Below, in pieces: positions 1,701 through 40,166 of a stretch of DNA of 53,808 nucleotides (its first letter is position 1; each line of letters starts with the position of its first letter). The stretch is from the IMG/VR virus record IMGVR_UViG_3300027522_000002, positions 1 through 53,808 of that record. One strand, written 5' to 3'. The notes under the pieces are model-generated. The model was not told the origin of the DNA. It was given only the letters and a program-made list of their open reading frames with translations, and did no database searches. The position numbers were made by a program, and so were the translations under genes. Source of the DNA: a virus (Duplodnaviria; Caudoviricetes).

Positions 1701-2189
1701 CTATACTTGCTTAACATCGTCTGGCTCAAGAAGAGTCGCGATAACTTCATCATCATTGATGATGCGAACTTCCCCTCCATCGATCTTAAATCTAGAACCC
1801 GAGTAACGGCCAATACATACCCATTGACCTTCTTTGCACCAAGGCTGCGGATTTGGGCCAAACTTGGCCGAATCCCTGTAAGCCAAGGGGCCAAGACGCA
1901 TAACGTAGGCCACAACCGTAGCCACCGTTTCACGTTCTCGAACTTCGTCTGGGATATAAAGACCCGATGCTGTCTTGGCTTTGCCTTGGTACGGCATAAC
2001 CAAAAGACGCCAACCTGTCGGCTGCGGCAATCGATCGAGCAATGGTTTTTCTAAAAGGTTTGGGTCTAACACCCGGTCTTCTGATGTCACATACGCGCTA
2101 TCCAAAGACGAAGATGGGGCTGCGGTTGCAGCTTTCTCTTTGTTCATTTTCTGCGCAACGGAATCAGGAAGATATAAAGTCTTCGACAT
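1701..2189 (-). CDS. groES: GroES/Cpn10-like co-chaperonin
   Basis: PTGWRLLV, mobile loop TASGLYIPD, and YSG...IDG.EVRIINDDEVIA. Confidence 0.85.
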   Translation of the reverse strand: MSKTLYLPDSVAQKMNKEKAATAAPSSSLDSAYVTSEDRVLDPNLLEKPLLDRLPQPTGWRLLVMPYQGKAKTASGLYIPDEVRERETVATVVAYVMRLGPLAYRDSAKFGPNPQPWCKEGQWVCIGRYSGSRFKIDGGEVRIINDDEVIATLLEPDDVKQV

Positions 2190-2757: not shown

Positions 2758-3369
2758 CTATTTTAACCAAGCATAGACCTTGTTCGTCTCTTTAATTCTA
2801 TGATCCAACCCCGTATATCCGCCGTTTATTTTTCGAGTTAGACGTTTAATTGTGTCATCGTTAACACCTTCGTCACAGATTTTCCACAGGTTGTTGGATT
2901 TAAAGAACCAGACTCCTGTGTCAAAGGCATAATCTTCTTCCAAAAGTGAGGGATCTGTCATCACCTCTGGAACTCGCATGTCTGTGGCAAAAGCTTTAAC
3001 GTTGTTATACCCGGTCAACTGAAGAAATCCACGACCTATCCACTTGTGGCCTTCGCCCTCGGGAATGCCCATACGACCACTGTACACCTTGTCCGCCAGT
3101 GCTTTAGGGTTTCGTTCATAGGGCTTTGCGCTCTCTTCTGTGGGAAAACGGCTAGGCCAAACCTTCATCATTGCGTCAACACTATAGTTCAAGTTTTCAC
3201 GAACATACTTAAACGTACCAGATTCATGGATAATTTGACCCAACAGATGAGCCCCGCGTTCTGGGGATAGCTCGTAATGCTCTGCGATACCTCGAGCCGT
3301 GTTCGGTCCAAAAGATCCGTCCGGTGTACACCCGCATTTTTTCTGCAGTATCTTTAGAGCGTCACTCAT
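2758..3369 (-). CDS. Endolysin, GH19 (chitinase-like) with short N-terminal peptidoglycan-binding segment
   Basis: HES...ENLNYS, GRGFLQLTG, INGG.GL..R; N-terminal LQ...DG.FGP.T. Confidence 0.9.
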   Translation of the reverse strand: MSDALKILQKKCGCTPDGSFGPNTARGIAEHYELSPERGAHLLGQIIHESGTFKYVRENLNYSVDAMMKVWPSRFPTEESAKPYERNPKALADKVYSGRMGIPEGEGHKWIGRGFLQLTGYNNVKAFATDMRVPEVMTDPSLLEEDYAFDTGVWFFKSNNLWKICDEGVNDDTIKRLTRKINGGYTGLDHRIKETNKVYAWLK

Positions 3370-4881: not shown

Positions 4882-7362
4882 TTAGCCTCGCTGCAATTTC
4901 TGTCGCTGGATGTCGATGCGCTCACGATTAACCTCGTTCCGATTATCCGCAATTTCTTCTTGGCTTTCGATTCTCGCAGAGTCAGTGGTTGCACGTTGCT
5001 GCATTTTCTGGAGCTCAACCAACATCTGACCCTGATCTTCTTCCGTCTTACGAAGTAGATCTTTTTCTTTAATTTCCAACTCTTGCATACGAATCTGCAC
5101 CAGAGGATCGTCCATAGGGCTGTTGCCTTGAGGCATAAGCTGCGGCATCACCTCAGTCATTAACTGCTCCATCTGCATGGATATCAGTTTTTCCATCTGG
5201 GCTGGGTCTTGCATATCCTGCTGAACTTGCGCCATTTGTGCTTGAGCAGCCTGTGGATCAAGCTGTCCCGCGCTTACAGAGGCTTGCGCCTGCTTCATGA
5301 TCTCGGAAATCTCTGTCTCAACCATCATACGGGCCTTCTGAGATAGGTGCTCCATGACATGAGCATAAAACGTACCCATGACTGTCGGAGACGTCGACAC
5401 CAAGGGAGTCTTCATAAACATCAAGTGAATGCGGATGTGGGCATCGTGATCCTGATCTGGAAATGTTGTCAGAATCTCGCCCATTAACGCACGGGCGTTC
5501 TCGATAGCTGGATCCAAAGGCTTGGGTTGAGGAGGAGGGGGCAACACCTCATCAATATTCTGGACCTCAAGTGCTTGGTACATACGTTTGTACGCAGCGT
5601 GGAGGTTATGCATTTCCGGATTAGACTGCGCCAATTGCAACTGCGTTTGTGCCAAGGTTACGCGCTGGGCCATCGAGAATATGTTGGGGTCACTGACCGG
5701 AACAACATCAACACGATTGTCAAAGTCCGAAGCCATGATCTGACGTTCGCCGCCTTGAACATCGTAAGGGTATTCTTGGGGCAGATTGTCTCTGAATATC
5801 CTAGCTAACACTCGGAACTCTTGCTTCTGAGCATAGTGCAGACGTTTGTGTATAGCGGACATAACTTTCATGCCGCGCTCTAGGAGAGCCACAGTGGTCC
5901 CTACAGGGGCTTGAGAGTTAGCATCGCCTGTCTGTTGGTCAGCAAGCTGTACGAAGCGTCTACCGCCCTCTATGAGCGTCCCAAGTAGGTTTGCGAGAGT
6001 TCCCGAAGGCTCTTTGTACGGAAGCGGGATAATTGCATCCCGTATGTTTCCACCAGGAGCGTCAATATCTCGCCATTCTCCGGGCTGTAAGGGCTCATCG
6101 TCATTCCGAACCCTTACACCCCGAGCCTTGAAGCCAGCGGGGAGGTTCGCCAGCGTTCCGGCATCGATCAACTGGCGAAGAATACTTGTAGCCGCACGAC
6201 CCAATCCACCAATCATGTGAATTAAACCAAAGCCATAGAATCCCAAACCAGGCATAAACTTGTAGTGAACAAAGTACTGCTGCTTCTTGGCAAGAGGACT
6301 GTCTTCTTCAAAGTTTCTGCGAATAGACAGAATGTGTCCCGAGCCTTCATCAACAGAAACAATATACGGGAGAGCAATTCCAGTAGGCTCTCCGTCCGGA
6401 GACATATCCTCGAAACCCTCGATATCTAAATCGACGTGCATTTCTAAAATAGTGTATATATCGTCCATGTATGTTTTGGACGTGCCTTGAATCTCGTCAA
6501 CTTTTTGACGGACCTCATCAGCATCGCCCTCAAAGGTGCTTAACTCTACATCACGGTACATCCCCGCAATCTGCAACTTGCGTATGGCATTAGCATCCAT
6601 TTTAAGAACGTGGGTAACCCTAGAAGCGGTAGCCAAGTCCGATGCTGCGTAGGGTACAACCAAGTCTTGCGCAGGAATAAACTGAGCGACAGCCCGTTGT
6701 TTAGCCTCATCGTAGTAAACTTTTTTGAAACATGATCCCGAAAGTGGTAAATAAAACAGAAGCTGATCCATATCCGGATCAAACTCTTCCATGACTTCCA
6801 TGATCTGGTAGTTCATGTAGTTCTTAACTCGAGTAGCCTGCTCTTCTCTCTCGGCATCCTGTAGACCAAGTACCTGTGTCTTGACAGGGCCACCGGACGG
6901 TAGGAGCTCCTTGTAAGCCTGTGCTTGGAATTGGGTAACACTCTCCGCTATAAGCGGGTGAGTGACGCCTGACGCGCCTGCAAACGGCTGTGTGCGCTCC
7001 ATGTACTTAATGCCAAGTTGATCCAAGCCTTTAGTGTAAGCTTCCTCCCACTCAGACCTAGACTCCATGTCATCTTCGAAAGACTGACGAAGCTCAGAAG
7101 AAAGCTCTCCTAAGTAACCATCCTCGAGATGATCCGCCAAGTTAACGGAGTGTTCTAGGGGCTCTTCCATGACTTCCCCGTTAAGAGAGTCCAGAAGAGA
7201 TTGGATAACTGCGCCACCTTGGCCGTCTTCTATAACCTCGGCCCCGCCTTCAAACGCCTCGGGCTCCATTACATCTATATTAACAGACGCCTCGCTGGGC
7301 ATCATGTCTTCCATTGTAATTCCAGCATCTACTGGGCCCATTGGGCGAGGTGGCAAAGCCAT
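4882..7362 (-). CDS. Portal protein (P22-like, long Q/M-rich C-terminal barrel)
   Basis: 826 aa directly after terL; HPLIAESVTQFQAQAY and PGLGFYGFGLIH; coiled-coil tail. Confidence 0.9.
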   Translation of the reverse strand: MALPPRPMGPVDAGITMEDMMPSEASVNIDVMEPEAFEGGAEVIEDGQGGAVIQSLLDSLNGEVMEEPLEHSVNLADHLEDGYLGELSSELRQSFEDDMESRSEWEEAYTKGLDQLGIKYMERTQPFAGASGVTHPLIAESVTQFQAQAYKELLPSGGPVKTQVLGLQDAEREEQATRVKNYMNYQIMEVMEEFDPDMDQLLFYLPLSGSCFKKVYYDEAKQRAVAQFIPAQDLVVPYAASDLATASRVTHVLKMDANAIRKLQIAGMYRDVELSTFEGDADEVRQKVDEIQGTSKTYMDDIYTILEMHVDLDIEGFEDMSPDGEPTGIALPYIVSVDEGSGHILSIRRNFEEDSPLAKKQQYFVHYKFMPGLGFYGFGLIHMIGGLGRAATSILRQLIDAGTLANLPAGFKARGVRVRNDDEPLQPGEWRDIDAPGGNIRDAIIPLPYKEPSGTLANLLGTLIEGGRRFVQLADQQTGDANSQAPVGTTVALLERGMKVMSAIHKRLHYAQKQEFRVLARIFRDNLPQEYPYDVQGGERQIMASDFDNRVDVVPVSDPNIFSMAQRVTLAQTQLQLAQSNPEMHNLHAAYKRMYQALEVQNIDEVLPPPPQPKPLDPAIENARALMGEILTTFPDQDHDAHIRIHLMFMKTPLVSTSPTVMGTFYAHVMEHLSQKARMMVETEISEIMKQAQASVSAGQLDPQAAQAQMAQVQQDMQDPAQMEKLISMQMEQLMTEVMPQLMPQGNSPMDDPLVQIRMQELEIKEKDLLRKTEEDQGQMLVELQKMQQRATTDSARIESQEEIADNRNEVNRERIDIQRQKLQRG

Positions 7363-8828
7363 TAGTAATACTCCCGTTTACGAGGAACAAAGTTTTCTTC
7401 CCCATCGTCCTCTCCGTTCAACGAGATAAACCCGCCTTGTCGAAAACGCATCAGTGCTAAAGTCATACTATCACAAAAGTCATCGTTGTCACCATTAGGA
7501 AATGAAACAACCTCTTCGATAACTTCATCCGCAAATTTCTTGTCGTGTGGGGCCCACACCATTCCAGATTCAAACATGGGGGCCACCATGTGCATTCGGG
7601 TAACCTTATCGTTTCCTTTGCCCGGAGAAAACCCTAAAGCTGGAATACCTTTTAGCCGAAGTTCTTGGATCAAAGGAGTACCTGTAGCTTTGGCCTCGAT
7701 AAGAACCATATCAGGCTCCCAATACTCGTATTCCTTAAACGCCTGCTCTTTTAACTCAGGGAAATTCCACCTTCCGCGCTGGGCATCAAGTAAAATAATA
7801 TGGTCCGGACCACCCTCCTCGGGTTTAAACACACCCCAAGTAGTAATCGCAGAATAATCCGCCGTTTCTTTCTTGGAAAACGCCGTGTCGTAAGACTGAA
7901 GAATGTAGTCTAGCCGAGGAACCGTCTCTTCCTCCCACCGTTTCCACCACTCGGTCTTAATAATCGCGGATGCGGAACCTGTTGGGTTCTGCTGCCACTG
8001 AGCGTTCCATTTTCCAACAGGCAACGAAGCTTTAATCGACAGCAGAGCGTCTTTTGCCCAGAACTCAGGCCACAACGGCTTGTCACTAGGCATAATCGCA
8101 GGAAATTCCACAACCTCCCACTGGTCAGACATCACATCGCTGCCCTGTTGGGCCAACAAACGGCCCGTCAAATCCTTTTTACCCCACCGAGTCATAACAA
8201 TTATGATGGCACCGCCCGGTTGAAGACGCTGGCGAGGACCAGAAGTGTACCACTCGTAGGCATTATCAAACGCAGATGCACTTAGGGCGTCTTGCTCCGA
8301 ATGAGGGTCATCAATGACAAGTAAATCCGCGCCACGGCCTGTGATAGCCGCTCCCACACCCGCCGCAAAGTACTCTGCACCCAAGTCAGTGCCCCAAGTA
8401 CCCGCTCCTTTATTGTCTTCTTTAAGGTTTGTGTTCGGAAATATAGTTTTGTACTCTGGATCATCAATTAAATCCCTTACTTTACGGCCAAAACGCACAG
8501 CCAACTCTGTGTTGTGAGTGGCTTGAATGATTTTTAACTTAGGGTTTCTACCTAGAAACCAAGCAGGCATCAAGTAAGACGCAAACTCGGACTTAGAATG
8601 ACGAGGCGGCATGTTTATAATCAAACGTTTGAGCTCTCCTCGCGCAACACGTTCAAGTTTTTCCGCAATAACTCGGTGATGCCGACCCTCGATGAAGTTA
8701 TCGTACACATGGTGGACAAAAGGCATGAAGTTCTCATGCGCTTTCTCCCTTAAATCCATGCGTTTCTTGGCCTCAGTTAAGGCCAAGATCTCCTTTAGAG
8801 CGTCCTCTGGTAGTGCCTGTAGGTTCAT
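7362..8828 (-). CDS. terL: Terminase large subunit
   Basis: Walker A MPPRHSKS, Walker B LLVIDDP, MTRW coupling motif, nuclease SYDTA and FPNGDNDDFCD. Confidence 0.97.
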   Translation of the reverse strand: MNLQALPEDALKEILALTEAKKRMDLREKAHENFMPFVHHVYDNFIEGRHHRVIAEKLERVARGELKRLIINMPPRHSKSEFASYLMPAWFLGRNPKLKIIQATHNTELAVRFGRKVRDLIDDPEYKTIFPNTNLKEDNKGAGTWGTDLGAEYFAAGVGAAITGRGADLLVIDDPHSEQDALSASAFDNAYEWYTSGPRQRLQPGGAIIIVMTRWGKKDLTGRLLAQQGSDVMSDQWEVVEFPAIMPSDKPLWPEFWAKDALLSIKASLPVGKWNAQWQQNPTGSASAIIKTEWWKRWEEETVPRLDYILQSYDTAFSKKETADYSAITTWGVFKPEEGGPDHIILLDAQRGRWNFPELKEQAFKEYEYWEPDMVLIEAKATGTPLIQELRLKGIPALGFSPGKGNDKVTRMHMVAPMFESGMVWAPHDKKFADEVIEEVVSFPNGDNDDFCDSMTLALMRFRQGGFISLNGEDDGEENFVPRKREYY

Positions 8829-11800
8829 GCTGCAGGTGTCGCTGCGGTGTAAGTCCTTCTATCGATGACTTTCCTGCGTTGGCCGGGGCCAGTGTCCCCT
8901 GGACGTATAGTTTGTCCGGTGTAGGGTCGAGTACTTGCTCCTGCCCGTAGACGATATGACTCCTCAATCTTAACACAAGTAGGTCCGTTTGGCCCATCCA
9001 CAAGCTCGTAACCCTCTGGGCATTCCATTGTAGGATCACCCGCCACATTCGTGCCAAGAACAGGAGCAACGCCGTCACCGCCATCCGATGGAAGACCAAC
9101 CGTTACGCCGTCATCCGTTGTAGTGAATGTTGGGATGCTAGGATCGTCACCGCCATCGTCGCCAAACACCTCTGGAGGAACGTATGCGGTATTAAACGGA
9201 ACAAACGGCCTGTTTGTTTTTTTCTCAACAGGGACTTCAACTGCAACAGGGACTTCCTGATTAGTTAGCAATGGTGGGTTCTCAACTACCGTCTTCATAG
9301 TTGACGCTGGCTCCTCCTCAGTAATCACTACCTCTTCCGTAGGCACCGCCACGTCTACGGTTTTAGCAACAGTGGGTAACTGATCTTCCACAATGACCTC
9401 TGTTCCCGTTTGGTTAGAAGCGTCGAGCATATCTGCTTTAGCTTCGGACAAAGCCACATCGGTTCCCGTCTCCGGAACATCAACTTCCACAAAATCTGTT
9501 TGCAGGTCGTTGTCTACTACCGTGCCTTCATCAATCTGGCTCTTCCCGTCTCCAACAATGCCTCTAAGATACTTAGCCGAGTCCGACAAAGCTGCATCGT
9601 AGGAAGGCGTTGCTTGAATTTCACTAACCTCTGGAGCATCCACCTCAACAAACGTGTCATCAATCGGAGTCTCAAGGTCCAAAGCTAGTTGCTCTTCGAC
9701 AGGTACTTCAACTGCGAACTGATCCGCAACGTCCGTAATCGAAGGCTGAACACCAAGCATGTCAGAACGGCGAGTATCAATCGGCTGATCCGTAGTACTC
9801 ACCATGGGCGCAGTCATGTCCGCCGGAGCAACCATCTTTGGGGTGTCGTACATAGCCGCAAGGTCTGCAATCGAAGGTTTAAGAGGAGCAACGTTGTTAA
9901 CAGTTACAGAGCCGTCCGCTTCCGGTGCACTAAGTTTTGGAGCAACAGCGTTGTCATACGCTGCATTCCCCGCTGCTTCCGCAGCCATCGCATCCCCAGT
10001 TTCCGTTAATGTCTGATTGTATGCCGCCTCTTGGGCCGCTATCGCGTCATAGTTCTCTTGAGCTTGAAGATTAGAAACCTCGGTTGTAACACTCGGAGCC
10101 TCTGTTCCCGTGATGATGTCCTCCGCAACGTTAGATCCGCGTGACCCATCGTCAGGTCCTTTTCTTTCCGCTGCCATGGGCGCAAGTTCAATGCCGCTCA
10201 TGGACGAAAGAAGCTGGGCGTCTGCGGTTGCTTTAGCATTTTCCGCTGCTGAAATTCTATCTACTGCCTGTCGTTTAGCCGTGGCAGTGTTGATGTCCTC
10301 CTCCAAGAATAAATCCAGCGCAGTCTGACCGTCCAGACTTTCGTTGGCGTTGGCCTGATCGATAACGTCCGTTGCCATTTCTTCTGACAACATAGCGTTG
10401 ATCTCGGCAAGAGTCTCCGCGTTAATGCTGCCTGTCGTTGCAACCTCGTCACTGGCGATTAAACCAAGCATATCCGCTTTGTTACGCTCTGCTTCTTTGG
10501 ACACCTTGGTGGCAACCTCAATCGCATCGGTCATAGGGAGCTCTAGTTTCGAGGCCAACTCAGCAATGTTACCTGTTGTGGCAGACTGCTCAAACGCTGC
10601 ATCGTCCAAAATCATCTCAGATAGCAACGCTGCGCTGTCATCCTTAGACTTCTGCAATAACTCCTGCTCCATCAAGGTCGTTTGGTCCGCAACCTGCGTG
10701 TTGTTGTCCGTCCGAGGGGTTACAATAGGGCCTGATTGGAACTTAGTAGGATCGTTAATAGTGCCATCAACCGTGTTGTTATATGCAGTATCAACCGTTG
10801 AACTCGCAAGCTGACCAGCAGTAGGACTCAACAAAGGATCTAATACCTGACCGTACATCGTTCCGGGCTCTTGGTTGGTCAAAGGACCACCTTCTGTTAC
10901 AGTCCCAGATCCGTCTCTCCTCGCGCCCGAAGTATTTGCACCCGAAGCAAGAGTCCCCCCAAATGCACCAAGAGCAGCACCTGTGATTGCTCCTTCCTTA
11001 TCAATATCGAGAGTAGGGACTATATTTTGTCCGCCACCCGCGAGAGCAGAAGCAACAAGAGAGGGTTCTCCGACCCCTTCACTCAAACCTCCTTCTAACA
11101 TAGTAGCACCAAGTTTTGATTTAAATCCCGGTAAGAATTTGCTGCCGAGGCCATAGGTTAAACCTTCAACTACACCCATACCAGCCGCGTAAGGCGTGAT
11201 CGTTTGAACATAATCAGTTACCAACTGACGCTGTTGATCTTTACTAATAGGACCATATTCTCCTTTAGCGATCCTTGCGTCCATCCTGTTTTCAATTTCA
11301 GAAGTAAGTTCCCCTGTGGTCATCGTTGCACCAAGAGCCGCACCCGCAACAGGATTAGCCACCGAAGTTGCGACAATCCCCGCAACAGTAGGAGCACCAT
11401 ACACGATTTCCGAAAAGAGGGCCTCCATATCCGGACCAAGTTTCCCAGTTCCAAGTATATCTCTGTCTTTGGCGGCTTTAGCGCGTGTACCTGTAAGGTT
11501 GCCAAGAGTGCGGTCTTTCAATCGGCCAAGAGTGTCTGCAACTCCCCCGACCTTGTTAGCAAATTGGTTTTCCGTTCCCGCAACCATGCCCCGTCTGTTT
11601 GGATCCGCGCCCAACGCCTTGGCAAAGCCCATGTCAATCTCAGGAATAATATTCCCGCTAGAATCTAACTGATCAAGGCCAATCGATGAGTCGCCAAACT
11701 TGTACTGATCCGCCGGATCAAAGTACTTAATTCCCTTTTCAACACCACGTCCAATTAACTCGGCACCTTGCAGAAAACCCGCGCCTAATAATCCACCGTA

Positions 11801-13084
11801 CCCAGTGCCCTGATCGGCATCATTACGACCAAGAGGGAATGTAAGGTCCGGCATTGCTCTAGGGCCAAGTTGAGCGTTTGGATCAGTGTTAAATACTGAT
11901 GGAAACTCCGCTCCAGGGAACATGTCCCGATATGAAACAGGCTCCGGCGCGTTACTTGTCTCCGTGAAATCTGTTGCGTTGGGATTCTTTCCTTGTCTCT
12001 CCAACTCTGCCAACTCAAGCATGGTCAATGCATCGCTGGCAACACCACTATTTTGAGCCATCTGAACGCCGCCAGCGTCAAGAGCAGCTAACTTAGCCTC
12101 AAACTCCTCGGGAGTGGAAGTCGCGGTCCGGAAATCATAGCCCCCCCTATCAGGAACAGGAGAAGGGATGTTATTACCGGGAGCAAGGCGATCTCCAATA
12201 CCAAAGTCTAATTGAGTAATGCCCCCTGATGTAGGGGTGTAATTTACCGCTGAACGATCCCCAAGGGCCTCAACAACGTTGCCGCGACCACCCCCCACAG
12301 AGGGAACGCGATTTGGATCCAAGAAAGGATCTCCGCCGCCCAATGTAGGAGTGTAATCAACAGGACGAGTTCCAACGTCAATAGGATCAAATAAGTTGGC
12401 CTGCGGATCACCCGTCATAGTAGGTGCCGCCGCAGGACGAAGCTGCGGACGTAAACTTGTAGCAGGAGCCGCAGGAGCAACAGGAGCGTAGTCCGTAGTA
12501 TAACTCTTGCCCTGATAATCAAACGTCTTCCCTGGGCCACCAGACTTACGAGCCGCCGAAAACGCATCGCCAAACGAACCAGAGCTGTCTGAACCGCCAG
12601 TGAACCCCGTGATCTGAGGAGTGTAGTTGTTATTTCCCTGCTGTGCCGCGTAGGAAGGACTACTGCCAAAACTGCCCGTTTTTAAAAAATTACCAATGCT
12701 GCCGTCAGTAGAAGAAGACTTAGAACCCGCGTAACGACTACCCTCGTTTAACGAAATCTGCGCGATTCTGTTCTTAGTTTTGTTGTCCGAACCACCAGCC
12801 GAAGTAACATCCTGCCCCAAACCAGCGTTCTTGTTTGCCCCAGTGTACGTCCGAGTAAGCATCTCACTGCCGTTCTCGTTCGTGCCGTGCGACTTCCACT
12901 CAAACCCGTCACCAGCATACTGACCAGTTGACGAAACAGAACCAACGTTCTTTGTCGGAGATCCTTTGCTTAAATTACCAGTAGACTTCTTCTGTTTCTT
13001 ATCATCCCCGCCGCCGCCAGAACCGCCGCCATCAGAATCAAACACCGGAGTCTTGTGGCGCAATGGCCCAAATAAATTGATCAT
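8825..13084 (-). CDS. Giant acidic low-complexity protein (1419 aa), probable internal virion/ejection protein
   Basis: Gly/Lys-rich N-terminus, central Gly/Ala hydrophobic segments, acidic tail, CPEGY...C motif; ATGA-coupled on both sides. Confidence 0.6.
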   Translation of the reverse strand: MINLFGPLRHKTPVFDSDGGGSGGGGDDKKQKKSTGNLSKGSPTKNVGSVSSTGQYAGDGFEWKSHGTNENGSEMLTRTYTGANKNAGLGQDVTSAGGSDNKTKNRIAQISLNEGSRYAGSKSSSTDGSIGNFLKTGSFGSSPSYAAQQGNNNYTPQITGFTGGSDSSGSFGDAFSAARKSGGPGKTFDYQGKSYTTDYAPVAPAAPATSLRPQLRPAAAPTMTGDPQANLFDPIDVGTRPVDYTPTLGGGDPFLDPNRVPSVGGGRGNVVEALGDRSAVNYTPTSGGITQLDFGIGDRLAPGNNIPSPVPDRGGYDFRTATSTPEEFEAKLAALDAGGVQMAQNSGVASDALTMLELAELERQGKNPNATDFTETSNAPEPVSYRDMFPGAEFPSVFNTDPNAQLGPRAMPDLTFPLGRNDADQGTGYGGLLGAGFLQGAELIGRGVEKGIKYFDPADQYKFGDSSIGLDQLDSSGNIIPEIDMGFAKALGADPNRRGMVAGTENQFANKVGGVADTLGRLKDRTLGNLTGTRAKAAKDRDILGTGKLGPDMEALFSEIVYGAPTVAGIVATSVANPVAGAALGATMTTGELTSEIENRMDARIAKGEYGPISKDQQRQLVTDYVQTITPYAAGMGVVEGLTYGLGSKFLPGFKSKLGATMLEGGLSEGVGEPSLVASALAGGGQNIVPTLDIDKEGAITGAALGAFGGTLASGANTSGARRDGSGTVTEGGPLTNQEPGTMYGQVLDPLLSPTAGQLASSTVDTAYNNTVDGTINDPTKFQSGPIVTPRTDNNTQVADQTTLMEQELLQKSKDDSAALLSEMILDDAAFEQSATTGNIAELASKLELPMTDAIEVATKVSKEAERNKADMLGLIASDEVATTGSINAETLAEINAMLSEEMATDVIDQANANESLDGQTALDLFLEEDINTATAKRQAVDRISAAENAKATADAQLLSSMSGIELAPMAAERKGPDDGSRGSNVAEDIITGTEAPSVTTEVSNLQAQENYDAIAAQEAAYNQTLTETGDAMAAEAAGNAAYDNAVAPKLSAPEADGSVTVNNVAPLKPSIADLAAMYDTPKMVAPADMTAPMVSTTDQPIDTRRSDMLGVQPSITDVADQFAVEVPVEEQLALDLETPIDDTFVEVDAPEVSEIQATPSYDAALSDSAKYLRGIVGDGKSQIDEGTVVDNDLQTDFVEVDVPETGTDVALSEAKADMLDASNQTGTEVIVEDQLPTVAKTVDVAVPTEEVVITEEEPASTMKTVVENPPLLTNQEVPVAVEVPVEKKTNRPFVPFNTAYVPPEVFGDDGGDDPSIPTFTTTDDGVTVGLPSDGGDGVAPVLGTNVAGDPTMECPEGYELVDGPNGPTCVKIEESYRLRAGASTRPYTGQTIRPGDTGPGQRRKVIDRRTYTAATPAA

Positions 13085-13494
13085 GCTACTTTCCTATGCC
13101 ATTTTTCGTCGCGCCGACTTCCGTCAGGATATAACCGTAATCCCTCCGCAGTGGCAATTTCTGGGTGATTATCCCACATAAACTGCTGAATGTCTCGTAT
13201 AAACCGTATTACCTGACGCCTGCCAGCCCTACACTGGAACTTCGGGAAGTACAAAATTCCCTCCTTCCTAGAGAAAACCTCGTCGCCAACCCACAAATCA
13301 GTGTCAATCTCCTCGCGGGTGAAAAACCCCCAAGTGCAATAACCAACAACCTCGCCACCATCACGATGAATAAAACAACGGTCATGACGTAACGCCGATA
13401 GTATCGAGTTCCGAGCACCGCCAATCGTCCGATCCTCGTAATAATCATCCTCCAAAACCAAAGTCATAACCCGACCCAGAAGATCATAGCTCAT
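13081..13494 (-). CDS. HlyC/TAAT-like (RTX toxin-activating) acyltransferase homolog
   Basis: LLGRV..L ... ILSALR ... VVGYCTW aligns without gaps to HlyC VLGHV..L ... VLPAIR ... PVAYCSW (HlyC recalled from memory). Confidence 0.65.
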   Translation of the reverse strand: MSYDLLGRVMTLVLEDDYYEDRTIGGARNSILSALRHDRCFIHRDGGEVVGYCTWGFFTREEIDTDLWVGDEVFSRKEGILYFPKFQCRAGRRQVIRFIRDIQQFMWDNHPEIATAEGLRLYPDGSRRDEKWHRKVA

Positions 13495-14186
13495 CCTTTT
13501 AAACTCCCAATGCCGCCCGGTGTGGAATACTTCTGTATCATGTCAGCATTAGGTAACGCCGTAGCAAGGCCACCGCTTAAAGGACTCATCTGACCACCCC
13601 GCTGAAAAGTGCCCGGAGGTGTAAGGCCCTTGGGCCGAGGAGCACTCGGCCTGCTCAACAACTTTCGTGCCGCCGCCATCAATCCACCGTCCTTCTCCGC
13701 AACCTGCGGAGTCAACTGCATACTGTCACGAGCCATGCGCTGTAAATCCTGCTGCTCCGCAGGTAACTGCTTACTAGGGATCTTCGAGGCATAATCCGAT
13801 AACCGTGTGCCATTGGAATCAGACGGATTATACTCCCCGTCAGTCTCAATAAACTTCTTCATTCCAGACTTGCCGCCTAAATGAGCCATTGCTAACATCG
13901 CCTCGGGAGAAATAATAACCCCGCCAACCTGCTGACCTATGTACTCATCTAAACCCTGATCAGCAACATACGATAAAATATCGTCCTCATGCCAACCCTG
14001 TACCTCTTCCTGTAATGCAGGGCTGTTCTGAAACTGAGACATGGAAAACTTCTTGCCTGTAGATGACATGAAGTCCGTTAAACGATCCGCACCAAACTGA
14101 TACTTCCCAACAAAACCCTCGTCATTACGAGCAGAGTAATCACCCCCACTCTCAAACTCAGCTAAACGTTCTCTAAAATTAGACAT
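13491..14186 (-). CDS. Lysozyme-fold peptidoglycan hydrolase / lytic transglycosylase, probably virion-associated
   Basis: ESGG.Y...N..G..GKYQF and AHLGG motifs; low-complexity C-terminus. Confidence 0.75.
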   Translation of the reverse strand: MSNFRERLAEFESGGDYSARNDEGFVGKYQFGADRLTDFMSSTGKKFSMSQFQNSPALQEEVQGWHEDDILSYVADQGLDEYIGQQVGGVIISPEAMLAMAHLGGKSGMKKFIETDGEYNPSDSNGTRLSDYASKIPSKQLPAEQQDLQRMARDSMQLTPQVAEKDGGLMAAARKLLSRPSAPRPKGLTPPGTFQRGGQMSPLSGGLATALPNADMIQKYSTPGGIGSLKG

Positions 14187-14338
14187 TCAATGATGCTCCG
14201 TGGCTCTCGGTCCTCTATACAACATTCCCGAATGAAATTACACCCACGATTTTTCTTGGGCCTTGGAGCTTGGGCACTGGGAACAAGTGGCAATGGAATT
14301 ATACTCAAATGATTTTACGACACCAACTAAACAGGCGC

Positions 14339-14378
14339 GGGGGGCGCGAGTAGGGGGGCCAAATAAGGGGGGTGGGGG
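14339..14378 (+). other. Four G-tracts (G6-N8-G6-N8-G6-N1-G5), G-quadruplex-capable; candidate genome-end/packaging site
   Basis: Tracts read directly; located in the divergent intergenic region between late and early genes. Confidence 0.55.
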
Positions 14379-14478
14379 TCGCGAACCGGTGCGATATCGA
14401 GCGCGATCCGGCGCAGTTACCCCCGTCCTTGGCGCTGCACTGCAGCATGGTCGCTGCATCGCGGCATAGATTGCCTGT

Positions 14479-14510
14479 GATCCGGTGCGATCCGGTGCGA
14501 TCCGGTGCGA
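14479..14510. repeat. 10-bp tandem repeat GATCCGGTGC x3.2
   Basis: Read directly; degenerate copies near 14382 and 14405. Confidence 0.9.
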
Positions 14511-14525
14511 AATAAAATGGTATGG

Positions 14526-14579
14526 CATGCAATTAATTGTATTTTACCTGTTGACTATATTAATTGCATGGACCATAAA
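14526..14579 (+). promoter_or_regulatory. Early promoter (TTGACT-17-CATAAA) overlapped by a 12-bp inverted repeat
   Basis: CATGCAATTAAT (14526-14537) and ATTAATTGCATG (14559-14570) flank the -35 at 14551. Confidence 0.6.
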
Positions 14580-14628
14580 GAATTTATGGAAGCAATAAAG
14601 CTTCCATTCAATTAAGGAAGTTTCAACC

Positions 14629-17206: not shown

Positions 17207-17345
17207 GGCCGCAGACCCGCAGGGCAACGGGGCCGCAGGGCAACGGGGCCGCAGGGCCGCAGAGCTATAAACTAGACCGCAGAGCGCAGGGCCGCAGAGT
17301 ATCGGGCCAAGATGCGAGGCCGCAGACCCAAGAACAAAGCCGCAG
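17207..17345 (+). repeat. GGCCGCAG cluster 3 (6 exact copies, 3 variants)
   Basis: Copies at 17207, 17231, 17247, 17255, 17290, 17318; the cluster runs into the 3' end of the nuclease gene. Confidence 0.95.
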
Positions 17346-17694
17346 AGCTCTCGAACCTCTCCCCTTGGGTGCCGGACAGCCCATTCTCGACAAGCTGACC
17401 GCTCTGATTCCCGTCAAATAAAAGTAGGTCACGCTCCGAGGACCTCTTTACTAAGATAAAATTTGCGCCACCTCTAGCCCAATATACTGTGTTCCAAGCG
17501 ACTTGATGAGCCGAGAGATTTACCCCGTTGCCTTTGGATACCTTGAGTTCGACCCAGCAAGCGAAGCCGTCCCAGATGAGGTGAACGTCAGGAACGCCAC
17601 CCCCGTGCTTGTTTTCAATCCTTGTCGCTTGGCATTTCGGGGGTAGATTCGATCTCAATGTGTTCCAAAAGTTGGCCTCTGGTCCCTTGCTCAT
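17272..17694 (-). CDS. PD-(D/E)xK nuclease (VRR-NUC / Holliday junction resolvase-like)
   Basis: E..FW, RIEN...GVPD, WVELK, LSAHQVAW; start at MSKGPE. Confidence 0.85.
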   Translation of the reverse strand: MSKGPEANFWNTLRSNLPPKCQATRIENKHGGGVPDVHLIWDGFACWVELKVSKGNGVNLSAHQVAWNTVYWARGGANFILVKRSSERDLLLFDGNQSGQLVENGLSGTQGERFESSAALFLGLRPRILARYSAALRSAV

Positions 17695-18184
17695 GTGGCG
17701 TGATATCCTTTGCTGTTCCCTCGATCTCAAAAGCTTGAGGATATTTCTTTTGTAGGTCTGCCAAACGTCCGACAATTTCATCCCGCGAAAGCTGATCGAT
17801 GCTGTTGACCTGTTCTCTTCTGTCCACAGTCAGACCTCCCAATGCAGACCGAATCTTCTCCGCATTGATGGCTGCTGAAAACTGGCCGTTCTCTTCTGCG
17901 CCGAGGGATAGTTTATGCAACCGTTCAAGCTGTCCGATTGTGGTGACAGCATACCTGCGCTCCCGCTCTTCCCGCATCTCTTGGATGTACTCAAGGACAT
18001 GAGGATAGTCTCGACCATTCAGCAAAAGAGATGCATGTTTGGCCGCAGTGGTTTCAGCAAAGCCAGCCTTACGAGCGGCCTCTGCATTGGAGTAGATGCC
18101 TTCCACGATAAAACGAGAGAAGGTCTTTTGTCTGTTGGTCAGGACCCTTTCGGCCCCGTCTTGCGTAGTTTCTTCTATCGACAT
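17615..18184 (-). CDS. terS: Terminase small subunit
   Basis: LTNRQKTF...SNAEAARKAGF HTH followed by helical AAINAE segment. Confidence 0.85.
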   Translation of the reverse strand: MSIEETTQDGAERVLTNRQKTFSRFIVEGIYSNAEAARKAGFAETTAAKHASLLLNGRDYPHVLEYIQEMREERERRYAVTTIGQLERLHKLSLGAEENGQFSAAINAEKIRSALGGLTVDRREQVNSIDQLSRDEIVGRLADLQKKYPQAFEIEGTAKDITPHEQGTRGQLLEHIEIESTPEMPSDKD

Positions 18185-18245
18185 ATGTTCGCCCCATTGT
18201 GCTCTACCAACAAGATAAACTATAGACATGAAATTGTCCATCTTT

Positions 18246-32778: not shown

Positions 32779-32974
32779 CGTAATCCGCCCATGGTGTTGG
32801 TTGCATCCTCTCGACGGCTTCGAGCTCACGCAAGCGGACTTAGTGGAGCAGCAATGGGATACTCTTTTGCACGACGAAGAACAAGCTATCTGGGATCAAT
32901 ACTACAAGCTTGAGGCTCAGAAAGAACTGATCCGACAACAACTGCAGAAGATTACTGATTCAAGAAAGAGTTAG
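32765..32974 (+). CDS. Hypothetical protein
   Basis: Last plus-strand ORF; converges on the virion genes. Confidence 0.55.
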   Translation: MEKDNVIRPWCWLHPLDGFELTQADLVEQQWDTLLHDEEQAIWDQYYKLEAQKELIRQQLQKITDSRKS

Positions 32975-35900
32975 CTGCTCGTTCCGCTGGAGTTCCTCCC
33001 AACAACTCAGGGTTCACGGGCCCTGGGGCTCGGGCTTGAATGATTGGTGAAGCCGCCGGAGTCAAACTCCCCTCCTGTTGAAGGTACGGGTTGACAGGGC
33101 TTGGTGCCTGCGGAGCAAGATCTAAGTATGGATTTGACCTTGTCGGTGGAGCAGGCGGATTAATCTCAACGGGTTTCATCTGCCGATCATCTTCTACCTG
33201 CGGATCCAACGGGCGTCCAAAGTAATTATCCTGCACGTTTTGAATAGCTGCCCTTGGCAAACTATCCAGGGCATCAACTCTCAATAGTTTTTTGTACACG
33301 TCTGGTGTGATTTTAAAGGGCTCGAACTCTCCGCGCATAATTCCTTTGATCCCACCGATGTTGTTCTCTTTAAGAGTCCGGCGAATTTCAGACTCGCTGA
33401 CACCCATGGTCCGAAGGTCTTGGATCATGCGGTAGTAGCCACGGTCATTGCGATACTTGGCGGCGTTAGCGTCTTCATAGCCCTTCAACAGTTGGTCCGG
33501 AGTAACGCCGAAGTCATCTGTCAGGCTGTTGAACATGCGCTTTGAGTCCGTCTGTCCACGTTGAAATCCGTATGCTGCAAACCGAAGGCCCTGCTTTGGG
33601 TCAAACGTTTGTTCCGAAACACCTGTACTAAGTCGAGCTAATTCTTGTTTCCAAGTCCGCTCACGGCCCATCTTATCTTGAGAGGCGATGGCATCGATAC
33701 CAAGTCCGTCACCCGCAACGCCGCGCAAGAAACGGCTGGCTTCGATTTTACCACCGGATATATCCGCCGCCGCCAGAACGTTTGGAATCATTGTGTTTGC
33801 CACATGCCCTGCCATCTTAAACAGCTTTGTGGCACCATCGTCCTTTGGATTATAAACTTGCGCCCCAGTTGATGTGCGTCCGCCACGGTATGTGATATCT
33901 AAAAGAGCATCTGTTAGCATGGCTTCGTCTAAGAACGGAGCAAACGCTTCGCCCAAGGTGCCAAATCCTACGTCCACAATAAATTGATCGAGGTCCTTTC
34001 CCTCTGCCCTAGCGGCATCAAATTCTGTAATGGCACGGTTGGCAAACCGAGACAGCACATCGTAAGGGTTCGAGGTACTGTAGTTGATGTATTTAATTTC
34101 CCCGTCTTTTGTTTTTCCCGTAGGAATCAAGGTTGCGCCCTTCATCCAAGGAGCAGCAAAGGATCTCTTAAGGGCTTCCATTTCTTCTCGAGTCACGTCT
34201 GAAATTGCATACGCGCCTTCCAGTACCGCAGCGGGAACAATCGCCGTTGTAGTAGCAAAGCCCAACAAACGCTGTTTGCCTCGTCTTTGAACGGCCTCAA
34301 TCGGAGAGGCCATATCGTCCAGACCCTGCCTCACAATGTTAAAACTTGTACGATACATCTCTGCAGGGAACGTGATGAAGTTACCAAACGGAAGCTTACG
34401 CCCCAACTTAATGAACTCAGACGCACCCTTGTTGTAGTTTGGCACAGTGTCCCGCACGATCTGTGACGCTCGGGTCTTGATAAGATCATCAATGTCCGCC
34501 GTTCCAGACCGTATCAATTGTTTTGCTTCGATTGAAACATCGTCCATGTTCTTGGTCAGGTACTTAATCTTGTCAGCCTCTGACGCACCGTCCAGCATGT
34601 GCCGTATCTTGGCTTGCTCCGAATGGTACGAGAAGTATTTCCAAATATCATCCGACCCTTGGTAGGCTTTCTCAAAACCCGCCGCAACTTTGCCGACACT
34701 TTTTGCCAGCTTACTGTCTACGGGCTTGCCTCTGACAGCCTCAATGAAGTTCTTTGGCCGAGGTTCTGCAGCGTTAGAGTACCCAATACCTTTGCTTAAC
34801 TGGTCTTGGATCTCCCTTAACTCTGCATTTGTTCCCAAGACTCCACGCCGTTGTGCGTCAGCTAGGTCATCAAATACAGCTTCACTGCCTTTGTTAAAGA
34901 TATCCGATGTGACCGCAGTCACAGCATCTTTGAAGTTGCTGCCTCTGCCAAGGCCCGGCCAATTACCGTTAGCCGTTGCAAAAGCAACAGCCGTTGTAAA
35001 GTTTCGTACCTGAGTGATGGGAGACAGAACAGTCTTGGCGTATTGAGATAAACCTTTACCCTTCAACGCTACACCTAAACCACCTCGCAAGAGTTCAACC
35101 CCAAAGTTTGACTCGCCCATAATTTGGTTGGTCAAATCTTTGTAAATTTGTTTTGGAACGTAGTGTCCGTCCAAGCTGCCCCAGCCTGTTCGCCCAATAA
35201 GCTTTTCTACTTGATCTGCGTCCTTGCCTACGGCTCCGACAACACTTGCTGCGCCGTCATCTCCGCCCAATTTAACATAGCCACGGCGAACTAATTCTTT
35301 TTTCTGTGCCGCACTAAGGTCCGCTCCGTCACGAAAGAACTTTCCAATGCCTGTGTTTGTTTTAGCCATCTTAGCGACAGTGCCGAAGTAATCATCAATG
35401 GCGTTGAACTGAGCAAGGTCGGCAACAGTGCCAAGGACAGCGGCCCGTGGATCATCGATCTCTCCAAGAAGAGCGCGAAGCTGTGGGGCTATCTTTTCCC
35501 TGGTAATGAACATGCCTGTGTCCAAACGGTCCTTCGCCACAAAGCCACCCTTTAGCTTTTCGTTTTTCTTCAAGGCGTATTTGTTCAAGAACCCTTCCCG
35601 AGCCATCTTAACTACAGTGTCGGTGGGACTGCCTCGTACTATAATTTTCTGTTTGTCCCCCGTCCCCGAACGAGCCAGACCATTTGATCGCAGGAACTGA
35701 TCGTTGAATACGTTATCAACGTCCGCTCGAGCCAGAGCGGAAAGCTCTTTCCCGATTAAGTTTTTGTTTCTCCGGAAGAAACCGTCTGCTACTCTAAGGG
35801 TCTTCTCATCAGGGACATACTTCGCATCCTCAAAGATTTTATAACGCCGACGAACGTAGCTTCCCAGCCCGTCTTGAATAACGTCCTTAATCATACGACC

Positions 35901-37082
35901 ATCTTTGGTCATAAAATTGTTATCACTTAGGAACTTACTGTCCAAAACACCTTGGCTCAGTGTGTCCACATGCTGGCGAATCTCAACTGCATCCCGTCTG
36001 ATCTCTCTTGGGAGAGCTCTTAATGCCGTAGCCTTGTCCGCAGGGTCCGCGATGCGTAGGAAATCCAACACTTTGTTAAGGGCGTTTGCTTTCTCTAACG
36101 AACCACCGTCCGGCAAAGACTTCATAGTTTTGTCCAGAGACTTCTCTATCTTGTTCATCATCCGCCCAGCTTTATCCAAGTCAGGCTTGATCTGTCCGTC
36201 CAGCAACAAACGTTTGTCTGCAATTTGTTCCGGAGTAGCACCGCGATATCTAGTAAAGACAACCGCGTCCGCAATACCTTTTTGGAACCCAGACAGGTCA
36301 TCTCCCGGTGCGTTCAATGTGCGTTTGTCCACCAGATCATCGAAATACTTACCCGCTGCGTCAATCTTTTTCTTGGTTCCCGCTGCAATATCCTTAGAAA
36401 CCTTTGCATCACCAATAGTTTTACCCGCCGCAGACAACCCACCTTGGATTGCCCCGCCAACAACACCAGCTTCTGCCAAGACCTTTAGGCGGTTTCCTGC
36501 CCGAGCAAGAGATTTCTCAGTGCCTTCCAGACCGATGAGATCTGTAGTTTGAGTAGGTCCTGCCTCGACCCAATCACCAATGGTGGTTGAGTTATCACCG
36601 GACACGGCCATTTCTATGCCAGCAACTGCGCCAAGTTCCCTCAGTGCAAGGTTAGTGCGCTCAGTCTTAGAAAGCTTGCCTGTCTTACCAGCAAGCTGAC
36701 GAGCTTTCATAAATCCTTTGCCGACTTTGCCAGCAATACCAACACCTGGAACAACAAACTGTGTTATTACTTCTGCACCAACACCAGCAATACCCTCGGG
36801 ATCAAAACCCGCCAAGTCTCGTAGGTACTCAGCCTTTTCGGTTACACTGTCTGTGTAGTTAGTGCCTGCAACAAGGTCCACGCCAAGTGTTCCAAGGCCA
36901 ATCACACCTTCACCGATGCCGATCAACCCAGAGCCAACGCCCTCGAACACTTCACGGCCTATGGAACCTTCCATGAACTGTTCTCTATTACGCCCAGTTT
37001 CTTCTTCCGGCTGTAGATAAGGGTTAGAATTTTCAACAGGGGCTTGGGGTTTGTCCAAGTCTAGGTAAGGATTAGTAGCCAT
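32952..37082 (-). CDS. Large internal virion / DNA ejection protein (1376 aa)
   Basis: Largest gene at the end of the ejection operon; helical; NPY repeats at both termini. Confidence 0.7.
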   Translation of the reverse strand: MATNPYLDLDKPQAPVENSNPYLQPEEETGRNREQFMEGSIGREVFEGVGSGLIGIGEGVIGLGTLGVDLVAGTNYTDSVTEKAEYLRDLAGFDPEGIAGVGAEVITQFVVPGVGIAGKVGKGFMKARQLAGKTGKLSKTERTNLALRELGAVAGIEMAVSGDNSTTIGDWVEAGPTQTTDLIGLEGTEKSLARAGNRLKVLAEAGVVGGAIQGGLSAAGKTIGDAKVSKDIAAGTKKKIDAAGKYFDDLVDKRTLNAPGDDLSGFQKGIADAVVFTRYRGATPEQIADKRLLLDGQIKPDLDKAGRMMNKIEKSLDKTMKSLPDGGSLEKANALNKVLDFLRIADPADKATALRALPREIRRDAVEIRQHVDTLSQGVLDSKFLSDNNFMTKDGRMIKDVIQDGLGSYVRRRYKIFEDAKYVPDEKTLRVADGFFRRNKNLIGKELSALARADVDNVFNDQFLRSNGLARSGTGDKQKIIVRGSPTDTVVKMAREGFLNKYALKKNEKLKGGFVAKDRLDTGMFITREKIAPQLRALLGEIDDPRAAVLGTVADLAQFNAIDDYFGTVAKMAKTNTGIGKFFRDGADLSAAQKKELVRRGYVKLGGDDGAASVVGAVGKDADQVEKLIGRTGWGSLDGHYVPKQIYKDLTNQIMGESNFGVELLRGGLGVALKGKGLSQYAKTVLSPITQVRNFTTAVAFATANGNWPGLGRGSNFKDAVTAVTSDIFNKGSEAVFDDLADAQRRGVLGTNAELREIQDQLSKGIGYSNAAEPRPKNFIEAVRGKPVDSKLAKSVGKVAAGFEKAYQGSDDIWKYFSYHSEQAKIRHMLDGASEADKIKYLTKNMDDVSIEAKQLIRSGTADIDDLIKTRASQIVRDTVPNYNKGASEFIKLGRKLPFGNFITFPAEMYRTSFNIVRQGLDDMASPIEAVQRRGKQRLLGFATTTAIVPAAVLEGAYAISDVTREEMEALKRSFAAPWMKGATLIPTGKTKDGEIKYINYSTSNPYDVLSRFANRAITEFDAARAEGKDLDQFIVDVGFGTLGEAFAPFLDEAMLTDALLDITYRGGRTSTGAQVYNPKDDGATKLFKMAGHVANTMIPNVLAAADISGGKIEASRFLRGVAGDGLGIDAIASQDKMGRERTWKQELARLSTGVSEQTFDPKQGLRFAAYGFQRGQTDSKRMFNSLTDDFGVTPDQLLKGYEDANAAKYRNDRGYYRMIQDLRTMGVSESEIRRTLKENNIGGIKGIMRGEFEPFKITPDVYKKLLRVDALDSLPRAAIQNVQDNYFGRPLDPQVEDDRQMKPVEINPPAPPTRSNPYLDLAPQAPSPVNPYLQQEGSLTPAASPIIQARAPGPVNPELLGGTPAERAANSFLNQ

Positions 37083-40128: not shown

Positions 40129-40166
40129 TACCAATTACCCCCGCCGTTTTTGTTTTCATTTGCCAT
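40128..40166 (-). CDS. 12-aa leader micro-ORF MANENKNGGGNW
   Basis: AGGAG SD 7 nt upstream; stop overlaps the next ATG (TAATG). Confidence 0.45.
   Translation of the reverse strand: MANENKNGGGNW

Follow-up and report, generated by a model that had tools for sequence, protein, structure and literature searches.

Does a marine phage encode an enzyme that lipidates one of its own proteins? This question is raised by a minus-strand late operon in the virus record IMGVR_UViG_3300027522_000002, analysed here over its whole length of 53,808 bp (the window). The record is a single contig with direct terminal repeats, classed as 100% complete, and the phage belongs to marine podovirus-like phages that form a clade akin to pelagiphages of the HTVC023P type. 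The operon encodes, in this order, a 231-aa lysozyme-like protein (13491-14186, minus strand), a 137-aa protein (13081-13494, minus strand), a 1419-aa acidic protein rich in Gly, Ala, Thr and Asp (8825-13084, minus strand), the large terminase subunit TerL and the portal protein. A previous reading of the DNA made from the letters alone (the sequence-only reading) had described ATGA overlaps that link the first three genes with one another and with terL, and all three junctions indeed read ATGA. It had likened the 137-aa protein to HlyC and proposed an RTX-like system by which the phage acylates the downstream protein for genome entry. The hlyC gene adjoins hlyA, so that this toxin-activating acyltransferase (TAAT) gene lies directly upstream of the gene of its substrate. 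Lipidation of the TAAT type is known for RTX (repeats-in-toxin) toxins and, since 2021, for CdiA. The analyses presented here establish that the 137-aa protein is a true homologue of the TAATs, and its pairing with a huge, fast-evolving protein suggests that the phage may lipidate a protein of its own.

The 137-aa protein is a homologue of toxin-activating acyltransferases

The 137-aa protein scored 29.5 bits (E 7.6e-7) with the Pfam family PF02794 (HlyC), whose curated cut-off is 25. The match spans residues 6-68, equivalent to positions 2-63 of the 127 positions of the profile, that is, its N-terminal half only; this is the region in which a likeness to HlyC had been claimed from sequence. 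A word-indexed search returned 45 relatives of 81-162 aa, all metagenomic, five of which are named hemolysin acyltransferase in their source, and an exhaustive phmmer search over 1.84 billion representatives gave 36 relatives at E<=0.001. PF02794 was matched independently by 25 of 38 aligned family members. The profile of the window family (A1) was compared by hhalign with that of eight more distant relatives which retain an Asp considered below (A2), and the two aligned with a probability of 99.7% (E 7.9e-26). All eight A2 members match PF02794, and the A2 profile matches the ApxC chain 4whn_A with an E-value of 6.7e-8. In the direct search of PDB chains only the A2 profile reached ApxIC; neither the 137-aa sequence nor the A1 profile did.

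A template-free AlphaFold2 (AF2) model of the 137-aa protein was obtained with a mean predicted local distance difference test score (pLDDT) of 88.4 and a predicted template modelling score (pTM) of 0.83. When this model was compared to the PDB with Foldseek, 4WHN (ApxIC) came out on top (E 6e-6, TM score 0.66), and the only three hits at E<=0.001 were all 4WHN chains. The independent all-against-all aligner VIA also placed 4whn_A first, with a Z-score of 11.6 and a root-mean-square deviation of 2.6 A over 123 aligned residues, and its runners-up were generic Gcn5-related N-acetyltransferases (GNATs) with a Z-score of 9.5 or less. A TAAT/GNAT fold, on which the earlier proposal depended, is thus predicted for the 137-aa protein. 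The model covers residues 6-139 of the 170 residues of the ApxIC chain, and the phage protein would therefore be without roughly the last 30 of them.

Similar proteins of 125-147 aa from uncultured phages are present in BFVD, one of them named HlyC. No match was obtained when the 137-aa protein and the A2 member P0073 were searched by tblastn against 50,697 GenBank phage records, and no PHROGs family was found for the 137-aa protein. A fused, longer form of the TAAT-like protein was not found either, which is weak evidence. No functional study of a phage TAAT was found in the literature; in 10.1101/2019.12.14.876532, supplements not covered, only the abbreviation 'HlyC' appears in a figure legend.

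The catalytic dyad is replaced in the phage family

According to the portions of PMC8510554 on which we rely throughout, TAAT catalysis uses a conserved His/Asp dyad, and in the direct-attack model the substrate Lys loses its proton to the Asp, while the leaving thiolate receives one from the His. The residues of the phage protein were mapped transitively, from the window family A1 to the A2 relatives and from these to the ApxC chain. The position of the catalytic His (index 35 of the ApxC chain; His24 in PMC8510554; His37 in CdiC) is occupied by Tyr in A2 and by Tyr19 in the window protein, and that of the catalytic Asp (..FIDW.. in ApxC; Asp107 in CdiC) by Asp in A2 and by Lys85 in the window protein. 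The position of HlyC Ser20 holds Thr in P0073, is variable among the A2 members and corresponds to Asp16 in the window protein. The sequence-only reading had given the Ser and His positions as Asp and Tyr, exactly as this alignment does, and Lys85 is an additional change beyond it. Its later LR..P element was recovered as well: Arg120 aligns with the Arg of '..IR' in ApxC and is kept in 61 of 62 family members.

Among 62 short TAAT-like proteins, the His position reads Tyr in 54, Phe in four, Trp in three and His in one, and the Asp position reads Lys in 44, Asp in eight, Gln in four and another residue in six. Glu62 and Arg76 are invariant (62/62) in a family that diverges to 27% identity. 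A carboxylate stands either at position 16 (48 sequences) or at position 85 (eight sequences), never at both, and 56 of the 62 proteins have one; this alternation is suggestive of a relocated base. A possible metal site made up of His37, His43, Cys53 and Cys88 was also considered and set aside. As judged from these alignments, the 137-aa protein belongs to the TAAT family by descent and not by the definition of the catalytic dyad. In the same source (PMC8510554) the ApxC His24Ala and CdiC H37A variants retain partial activity, and the CdiC H37A and D107A alleles phenocopy the deletion in competition cocultures.

The TAAT-like gene is coupled to a gene for a large protein

A scan of IMG/VR with the alignment of the TAAT-like family identified 41 loci, four of which end before any downstream gene. 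In 33 of the 37 loci having downstream sequence, the next open reading frame (ORF) overlaps the TAAT-like gene by 4 nt; in two of these 33, the overlap is obtained with an ATG 18 nt downstream of the earliest start codon. Proteins of 534-2027 aa are encoded by the 22 downstream ORFs that are complete. The linkage of homologues to large proteins, whose lack would have refuted the proposal of the sequence-only reading, is thus observed at 33 of 37 loci. At the other four (L038-L041), where the TAAT-like protein shows 38-44% identity, the next ORF encodes a Lys-rich protein of 168-215 aa ending in ..KKKK(T/A)LI(A/G). The complete upstream gene of L039 and L040 matches the terminase large-subunit family, and L038-L041 represent a different cassette architecture. 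In 19 of the 41 loci the retrieved DNA includes terL farther downstream, and in L029 and L030 terL and the portal gene lie upstream instead.

A reverse search with the N-terminal motif of one partner subgroup found a TAAT-like gene directly upstream in 11 loci out of 11. Ten of these are contigs in which the TAAT-like gene was already known, and in the eleventh the 119 bases upstream contain the end of a TAAT-like ORF; because the patterns were drawn from TAAT-linked loci, this test leans towards relatives. The identities of the TAAT-like and TerL proteins are incongruent (52% versus 84% in L033, 73% versus 61% in L013), which indicates that the cassette moves among genomes.

When 185,579 species genomes were scanned, one match was obtained (L045), on a 2.8-kb contig of a gammaproteobacterial metagenome-assembled genome. 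It shows the same order of lysozyme-like, TAAT-like and giant-protein genes at 86% identity. L045 is probably a phage fragment that was binned with this genome, and as a hint to the host of the phage it is weak at best.

The large proteins share an N-terminal peptide

The partner set comprises 34 downstream proteins, of which 23 are complete, the window protein being counted in both. They form one BLAST-linked set with little shared sequence. All are acidic proteins with a pI of 4.05-4.6, in which Lys is scarce (0.9-4.8%) and Gly, Ala, Ser, Thr and Asp are abundant. All 34, representing 27 distinct N-termini, start with a hydrophobic peptide ending in ..(I/V/A)(V/A)(F/R/C)(D/E)(S/T/V).G, after which comes a Gly/Ser/Asp-rich run. 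This peptide with its poly-Gly is the only feature present in every partner copy. A capsid-targeting and cleavage signal like that of T4, which would end at ..VF(D/E), was considered for it and set aside. In the 1419-aa protein it occupies residues 1-26 (13007-13084, minus strand), the hydrophobic stretch being followed by ..VFD-S...

Residues 45-159 of the 1419-aa protein (12608-12952, minus strand) constitute a mobile module, which BLASTP also detected internally in the otherwise unrelated partners of L014, L029 and L030 with 40-43% identity (E 9e-22 to 6e-17). Near the other end, a C-x-[ED]-G-x(6-14)-C motif (residues 1355-1370; 8975-9022, minus strand) recurs in 18 of the 23 complete partners, 34-83 residues from the C-terminus, and the region around it is the most conserved 50-residue block (0.94) among 21 close homologues of the 1419-aa protein.

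The 1419-aa protein has a pI of 4.27 and a Gly-rich N-terminus with a cluster of Lys at residues 19-45, in agreement with the Lys/Gly-rich N-terminus noted before. No Pfam (E<=0.1), PHROG or NCBIfam family was found in it, and since it has no Pfam or PHROG family no RTX repeats are detected, as the sequence-only reading had stated. The central hydrophobic Gly/Ala helices described in that reading are reduced to the segment 567-585, the only one with a Kyte-Doolittle mean above 1.4, so that this description is a weak one. Residues 420-1000 have 24 homologues, all metagenomic, with 59-100% identity. In the ESM Atlas the 1419-aa protein falls into its own cluster (0.97), with weak leads, one of which (0.86) is to a cluster of which 57% of the members carry LPD22, a domain that marks large polyvalent phage proteins.

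Among the 21 close homologues, 18 of the 55 Lys residues are at least 90% conserved, and three of these stand in Gly-Lys contexts (186, 193 and 1181). Lys186 and Lys193 were considered as a conserved Gly-Lys acylation site and rejected: they are kept in the close homologues, but Lys186 is a Gln in L024. A complex prediction for the A1 family with the 60-residue partner N-termini, made without controls, gave a score of 0.01, which speaks neither for nor against binding.

Three kinds of acyltransferase-superfamily gene occupy the same slot

IMG/VR contains at least 599 terL relatives, and the best 80 of them (identity at least 85%) were examined for what precedes the large gene. An A1-type TAAT-like gene occupies this slot at two of these 80 loci, an Asp-retaining TAAT-like gene with Tyr at the His position at five, and a classical GNAT gene at five, plus one short remnant. 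The Asp-retaining cassette type, found in L064, L067, L083 and L134, precedes proteins of 474-650 aa whose N-termini show the motif variant ..PQI(A/C)(F/Y)GG(D/E)S.GGGG. The slot GNATs of L116, L119, L131 and L132 have 149-163 aa. Their scores against PF00583 (cut-off 20.7 bits) are 21.8 and 22.5 bits in L119 and L132 and 20.3 bits in L116, and none of the classical GNATs matched the TAAT profile even with filters off. Those of L116 and L119 precede proteins of 629-634 aa with a hydrophobic start and then poly-Gly; in L131 and L132 the GNAT is followed by a 1213-aa protein with no more than a Gly-Gly-Asn-Asp run at its N-terminus. Thirteen loci, some of them near-identical pairs, extend for 5 kb or more on the upstream side of terL; three of the 13 have a TAAT-like gene, two have a GNAT gene and eight have neither.

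The presence of three kinds of enzyme of the acyltransferase superfamily in one slot, before a large protein with a Gly-rich N-terminus, suggests that acyl transfer is selected and not mere binding. This displacement is the strongest argument for acylation of the downstream protein as opposed to a role as a chaperone alone.

The remnant, a stretch of 60 codons matching the L116 GNAT (E 9e-7), lies at L115:1495-1674 between genes for proteins of 219 and 637 aa and looks like a decaying acyltransferase gene.

The upstream gene often encodes a putative wall-degrading protein

The 231-aa protein, a putative muramidase as in the sequence-only reading, consists of a predicted lysozyme- or transglycosylase-like domain (approximately residues 1-135) and a Pro/Gly-rich C-terminal tail ending in a GG..GLG-type motif. 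It matches phrog_26675 (endolysin) with an E-value of 2e-14; its match to PF06737 (19.4 bits, cut-off 27) and the NCBIfam lysozyme-like matches are below threshold, and the PDB sequence search gave no match. Its positional counterpart in L008 is an SLT transglycosylase (E 6.3e-26), and those in L083 and L090 are lysozyme-like. In L011-L023 the counterparts are low-complexity proteins of 141-175 aa rich in Pro, Met, Gln and Gly (for example L011:2459-2884, L013:9474-10001, L017:2263-2769 and L021:9525-10001), which have the same kind of C-terminal tail and a conserved Lys-containing motif, YGGS..GRA.FK, and belong to no Pfam family. Peptidoglycan-related domains also occur in the large proteins themselves, with Amidase_2 in L017 (E 6e-17) and LysM in L033 and L036 among the 13 partners scanned. 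A second, stronger endolysin candidate of 203 aa is encoded inside the head module of the window (2758-3369, minus strand; phrog_181, E 3.5e-47), and therefore the 231-aa protein need not be the lysis enzyme; the genome would thus encode two enzymes that degrade the wall.

A C-terminal motif, GG-(V/L)-(V/A)-(T/P)...F/L..G(L/M)(G/R), recurs on different proteins of the module: on the tail of the 231-aa protein (13491-13760), on the upstream ORFs of L011-L023 and at the C-termini of the L013, L014, L017 and L020 partners. It is also found on proteins of the terL-portal interval of cultured relatives (gp41 of L001 and a 616-aa protein of L044). This motif may be a shared docking or packaging signal.

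From these comparisons the cassette can be described as a small protein with the tail motif and often a peptidoglycan hydrolase domain, a small protein of the acyltransferase superfamily and a large, acidic, Lys-poor and fast-evolving protein.

Comparison with known systems

The phage protein shares with HlyC, CyaC and ApxIC (PF02794; 4WHN) the sequence family, the GNAT-like fold and the LPA, ..E.. and ..R..P elements, as well as the gene order, in which the small gene immediately precedes that of a very large cognate protein. It differs from them in its length (137 aa versus about 170 aa) and in the Tyr and Lys at the positions of the His/Asp dyad; unlike the RTX toxins, its partner has neither RTX repeats nor a conserved Gly-Lys site, and the setting is a phage late operon.

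GNATs of the RimI/RimJ/RimL type are small classical protein acetyltransferases which act at the extreme N-terminus. They belong to PF00583 like the slot GNATs of the relatives, and the conserved element of the partners is likewise at the extreme N-terminus. The window protein, in contrast, is TAAT-like and not of PF00583, and its presumed donor is acyl-acyl carrier protein (acyl-ACP) instead of acetyl-CoA. Ejection and polyvalent proteins, such as T7 gp16, an internal protein with a wall-degrading domain, resemble the partners in size, in their neighbourhood of head and packaging genes, in the peptidoglycan domains of some and in mosaic evolution, whereas the 1419-aa protein has no sequence or fold match to any of them. 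No ejection or polyvalent protein is known to have a dedicated acyltransferase.

The precedent closest in logic is CdiC/CdiA of class IV contact-dependent growth inhibition (CDI). CdiC is a TAAT encoded just upstream of the giant CdiA and lipidates one Lys of it, which promotes binding to the outer membrane of the target cell (PMC8510554). As in the phage cassette, a TAAT outside the RTX toxins is encoded before a giant, modular, fast-evolving protein; CdiA must engage the envelope of another cell, with the lipid anchoring it in the outer membrane, and some loci have lost the acyltransferase (PMC8510554), which some phage relatives also do without. CdiC nevertheless retains His37 and Asp107, both needed in vivo, whereas the phage protein is without the dyad; the CdiA site is a defined and conserved residue, Lys1467, whereas the phage partners share no conserved Lys; and CdiA is exported by a two-partner secretion system (PMC8510554). 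The idea of an RTX-like phage lipidation system thus stands in part: the fold is predicted and the homologues are tied to large proteins, while the parallel to RTX toxins is loose and that to CdiC/CdiA closer.

Proposed role and alternative explanations

We propose that the TAAT-like protein acts on the product of its translationally coupled gene. During or just after synthesis of the large protein, an acyl group, by family precedent from host acyl-ACP, would be moved onto it, either at or near the conserved N-terminal peptide or on some Lys. Once lipidated, this wall-acting protein would engage the envelope of the host, most probably during infection. Tyr is a usual proton donor in GNATs, and catalysis might dispense with the His/Asp dyad if Tyr19 served as the donor and Asp16 or Glu62 as the base. 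The donor, the target and its site and a role in entry are inferences, as is the presence of the large protein in the virion, for which the context is the location of the gene in a late operon beside terL and the portal gene and Amidase_2 or LysM in some relatives. Transfer of an acyl group to the large downstream protein is in our estimate possible, at somewhat short of even chances. A more specific version, in which interchangeable small acyltransferases (TAAT-like or classical GNAT) acylate a giant protein carried in the virion, on the alpha-amine of its conserved hydrophobic N-terminal peptide or on a residue close by, so that a lipid-tipped, poly-Gly-tethered probe inserts into host membranes at genome entry, is very unlikely.

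Several observations weigh against the large protein as an acyl acceptor. The published dyad is replaced at both positions (Tyr19 and Lys85), and the CdiC D107A allele phenocopies a deletion (PMC8510554). The Trp or Phe found at the Tyr position in 7 of 62 proteins shows that a catalytic hydroxyl is not universal, and the switch of the carboxylate between positions 16 and 85 may go back to one event in evolution. ApxIC is longer than the phage protein by about 30 residues. On the substrate side, no Lys is conserved across the 34 partners, and neither Lys nor Ser nor Thr is universal in their N-terminal motif. Residues 420-1000 were modelled by AF2, with 21 homologues, at low confidence (pLDDT 39.9), as helices and disorder, and the large protein is a candidate virion component from its context only. 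Eight of the 13 terL relatives with long upstream sequence have neither a TAAT-like nor a GNAT gene, and L117 and L120 keep a poly-Gly protein without an acyltransferase gene. Finally, no PP-binding (ACP) gene was found in the genome, so that any acyl donor must be host-derived.

Part of this evidence would also suit a pseudoenzyme, a TAAT-derived, non-catalytic chaperone or assembly adaptor which binds the N-terminal peptide while the large protein is being made. Such an adaptor might, for instance, hold an acidic and disordered protein in solution or bring it to the portal or procapsid. The loss of both dyad residues, the Trp or Phe at the His position of seven proteins and the absence of the gene from some relatives all point this way; translational coupling by a 4-nt overlap suits a dedicated chaperone, as does a sole universal partner element that has no universal nucleophile. 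However, the use of the same slot by Asp-retaining TAAT-like genes and classical GNATs is hard to explain unless acyl transfer is selected, and Glu62, Arg76 (62/62) and Arg120 (61/62), the latter matching the Arg of '..IR' in ApxC, have been retained despite divergence to 27% identity. We therefore regard a pseudoenzyme as unlikely, though it deserves serious attention. Should the enzyme be active, its target could also be another one: the upstream protein with the tail motif or hydrolase domain, another virion protein, a component of the host envelope or a small molecule, with the large gene just adjoining it in a cassette site that varies. Cassettes are indeed exchanged at a hot spot upstream of terL, as the incongruent TAAT and TerL identities illustrate, and the Lys-containing motif is shared by the upstream proteins of L011-L023 and not by the large ones, which have no conserved Lys. 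This explanation has a slight probability, since the small gene overlaps the start of the large gene in 33 of 37 loci, whereas its upstream neighbour varies in family or is absent; the displacing GNATs also directly precede a large protein with an N-terminal poly-Gly or Gly-Gly-Asp run, and known TAAT genes directly precede the gene of their substrate (cdiC-cdiA, PMC8510554).

The chemistry proposed here could also serve another biology, with the large protein as an external fibre or adhesin, and not an ejected protein, whose lipid aids adsorption to the host outer membrane in the manner of CdiC/CdiA. Receptor-binding proteins typically combine a conserved N-terminus with hypervariable sequence thereafter, long coiled coils are present in the L036 partner, lipidation of CdiA promotes receptor binding (PMC8510554), and candidate ejection proteins are already encoded elsewhere in the genome (phrog_4287 and a tape-measure-like gene). 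On the other hand, Amidase_2 and LysM act on peptidoglycan, which is out of reach of an external fibre in a Gram-negative host; the gene lies beside terL and the portal gene and not in the tail module, and the ESM Atlas offers a lead, at 0.86 no more than that, to the LPD22 cluster. An external fibre or adhesin is in our view distinctly unlikely.

If acyl transfer to the large protein is correct, a phage TAAT acting on a phage protein would extend this lipidation to viruses and would represent a new principle by which tailed phages deal with the host envelope. The N-terminal version would be the equivalent, in a bacterial virus, of the myristoylated penetration peptides found in animal viruses, and would provide the first known phage-encoded enzyme lipidating a protein of its own virion. 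A pseudoenzyme would be a clear case of a toxin-activation enzyme recruited as the dedicated partner of a hypervariable phage protein. In any case, a slot holding three kinds of GNAT-superfamily enzyme or none constitutes a natural experiment, in a lineage whose terL relatives in IMG/VR number at least 599 and which is related to the HTVC023P-type pelagiphages, described in the part of 10.1101/2019.12.14.876532 covered here as being among the most abundant marine viral clusters.

Genome context and other features

The terL gene (7362-8828, minus strand) was assigned by phrog_38 (E 9.4e-106) and PF17289, and the portal gene, next in the operon (4882-7362, minus strand), by phrog_1216 (E 1.1e-44). 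At the DNA level, terL is about 64% identical to those of Pelagibacter phage HTVC027P, phage DSL-LC04 and phage 023Pt_psg01. No TAAT-like match was obtained by tblastn in these three phages, and none of the proteins read near their terL starts with the partner N-terminal motif. No genes of a type I secretion system, whose absence the sequence-only reading had remarked, were present among the 25 genome ORFs scanned against PHROGs, a scan which was not aimed at such systems.

An intergenic region of 442 bp (14187-14628) separates the minus-strand late operon from plus-strand genes in the ORF map. One sigma-70-like site was found on its minus strand (14563-14536); with 0.9 sites expected by shuffling, it is not significant.

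A second giant ORF of 1376 aa (32952-37082, minus strand), without a PHROG family, terminates the tail and ejection module. It has as neighbours a 'DNA ejection protein' of phrog_4287 (38138-39349) and a protein with tape-measure-like matches (39355-40134). The structural region also contains genes for a GroES-like co-chaperonin (1701-2189, minus strand; phrog_3188, E 1e-13) and for a protein of a PHROG annotated as ferredoxin (49093-49791, minus strand; phrog_3704, E 4.5e-28). Two further minus-strand ORFs, 17272-17781 (169 aa) and 17615-18241 (208 aa), overlap by 167 bp, and the 208-aa product looks like a candidate small terminase subunit.

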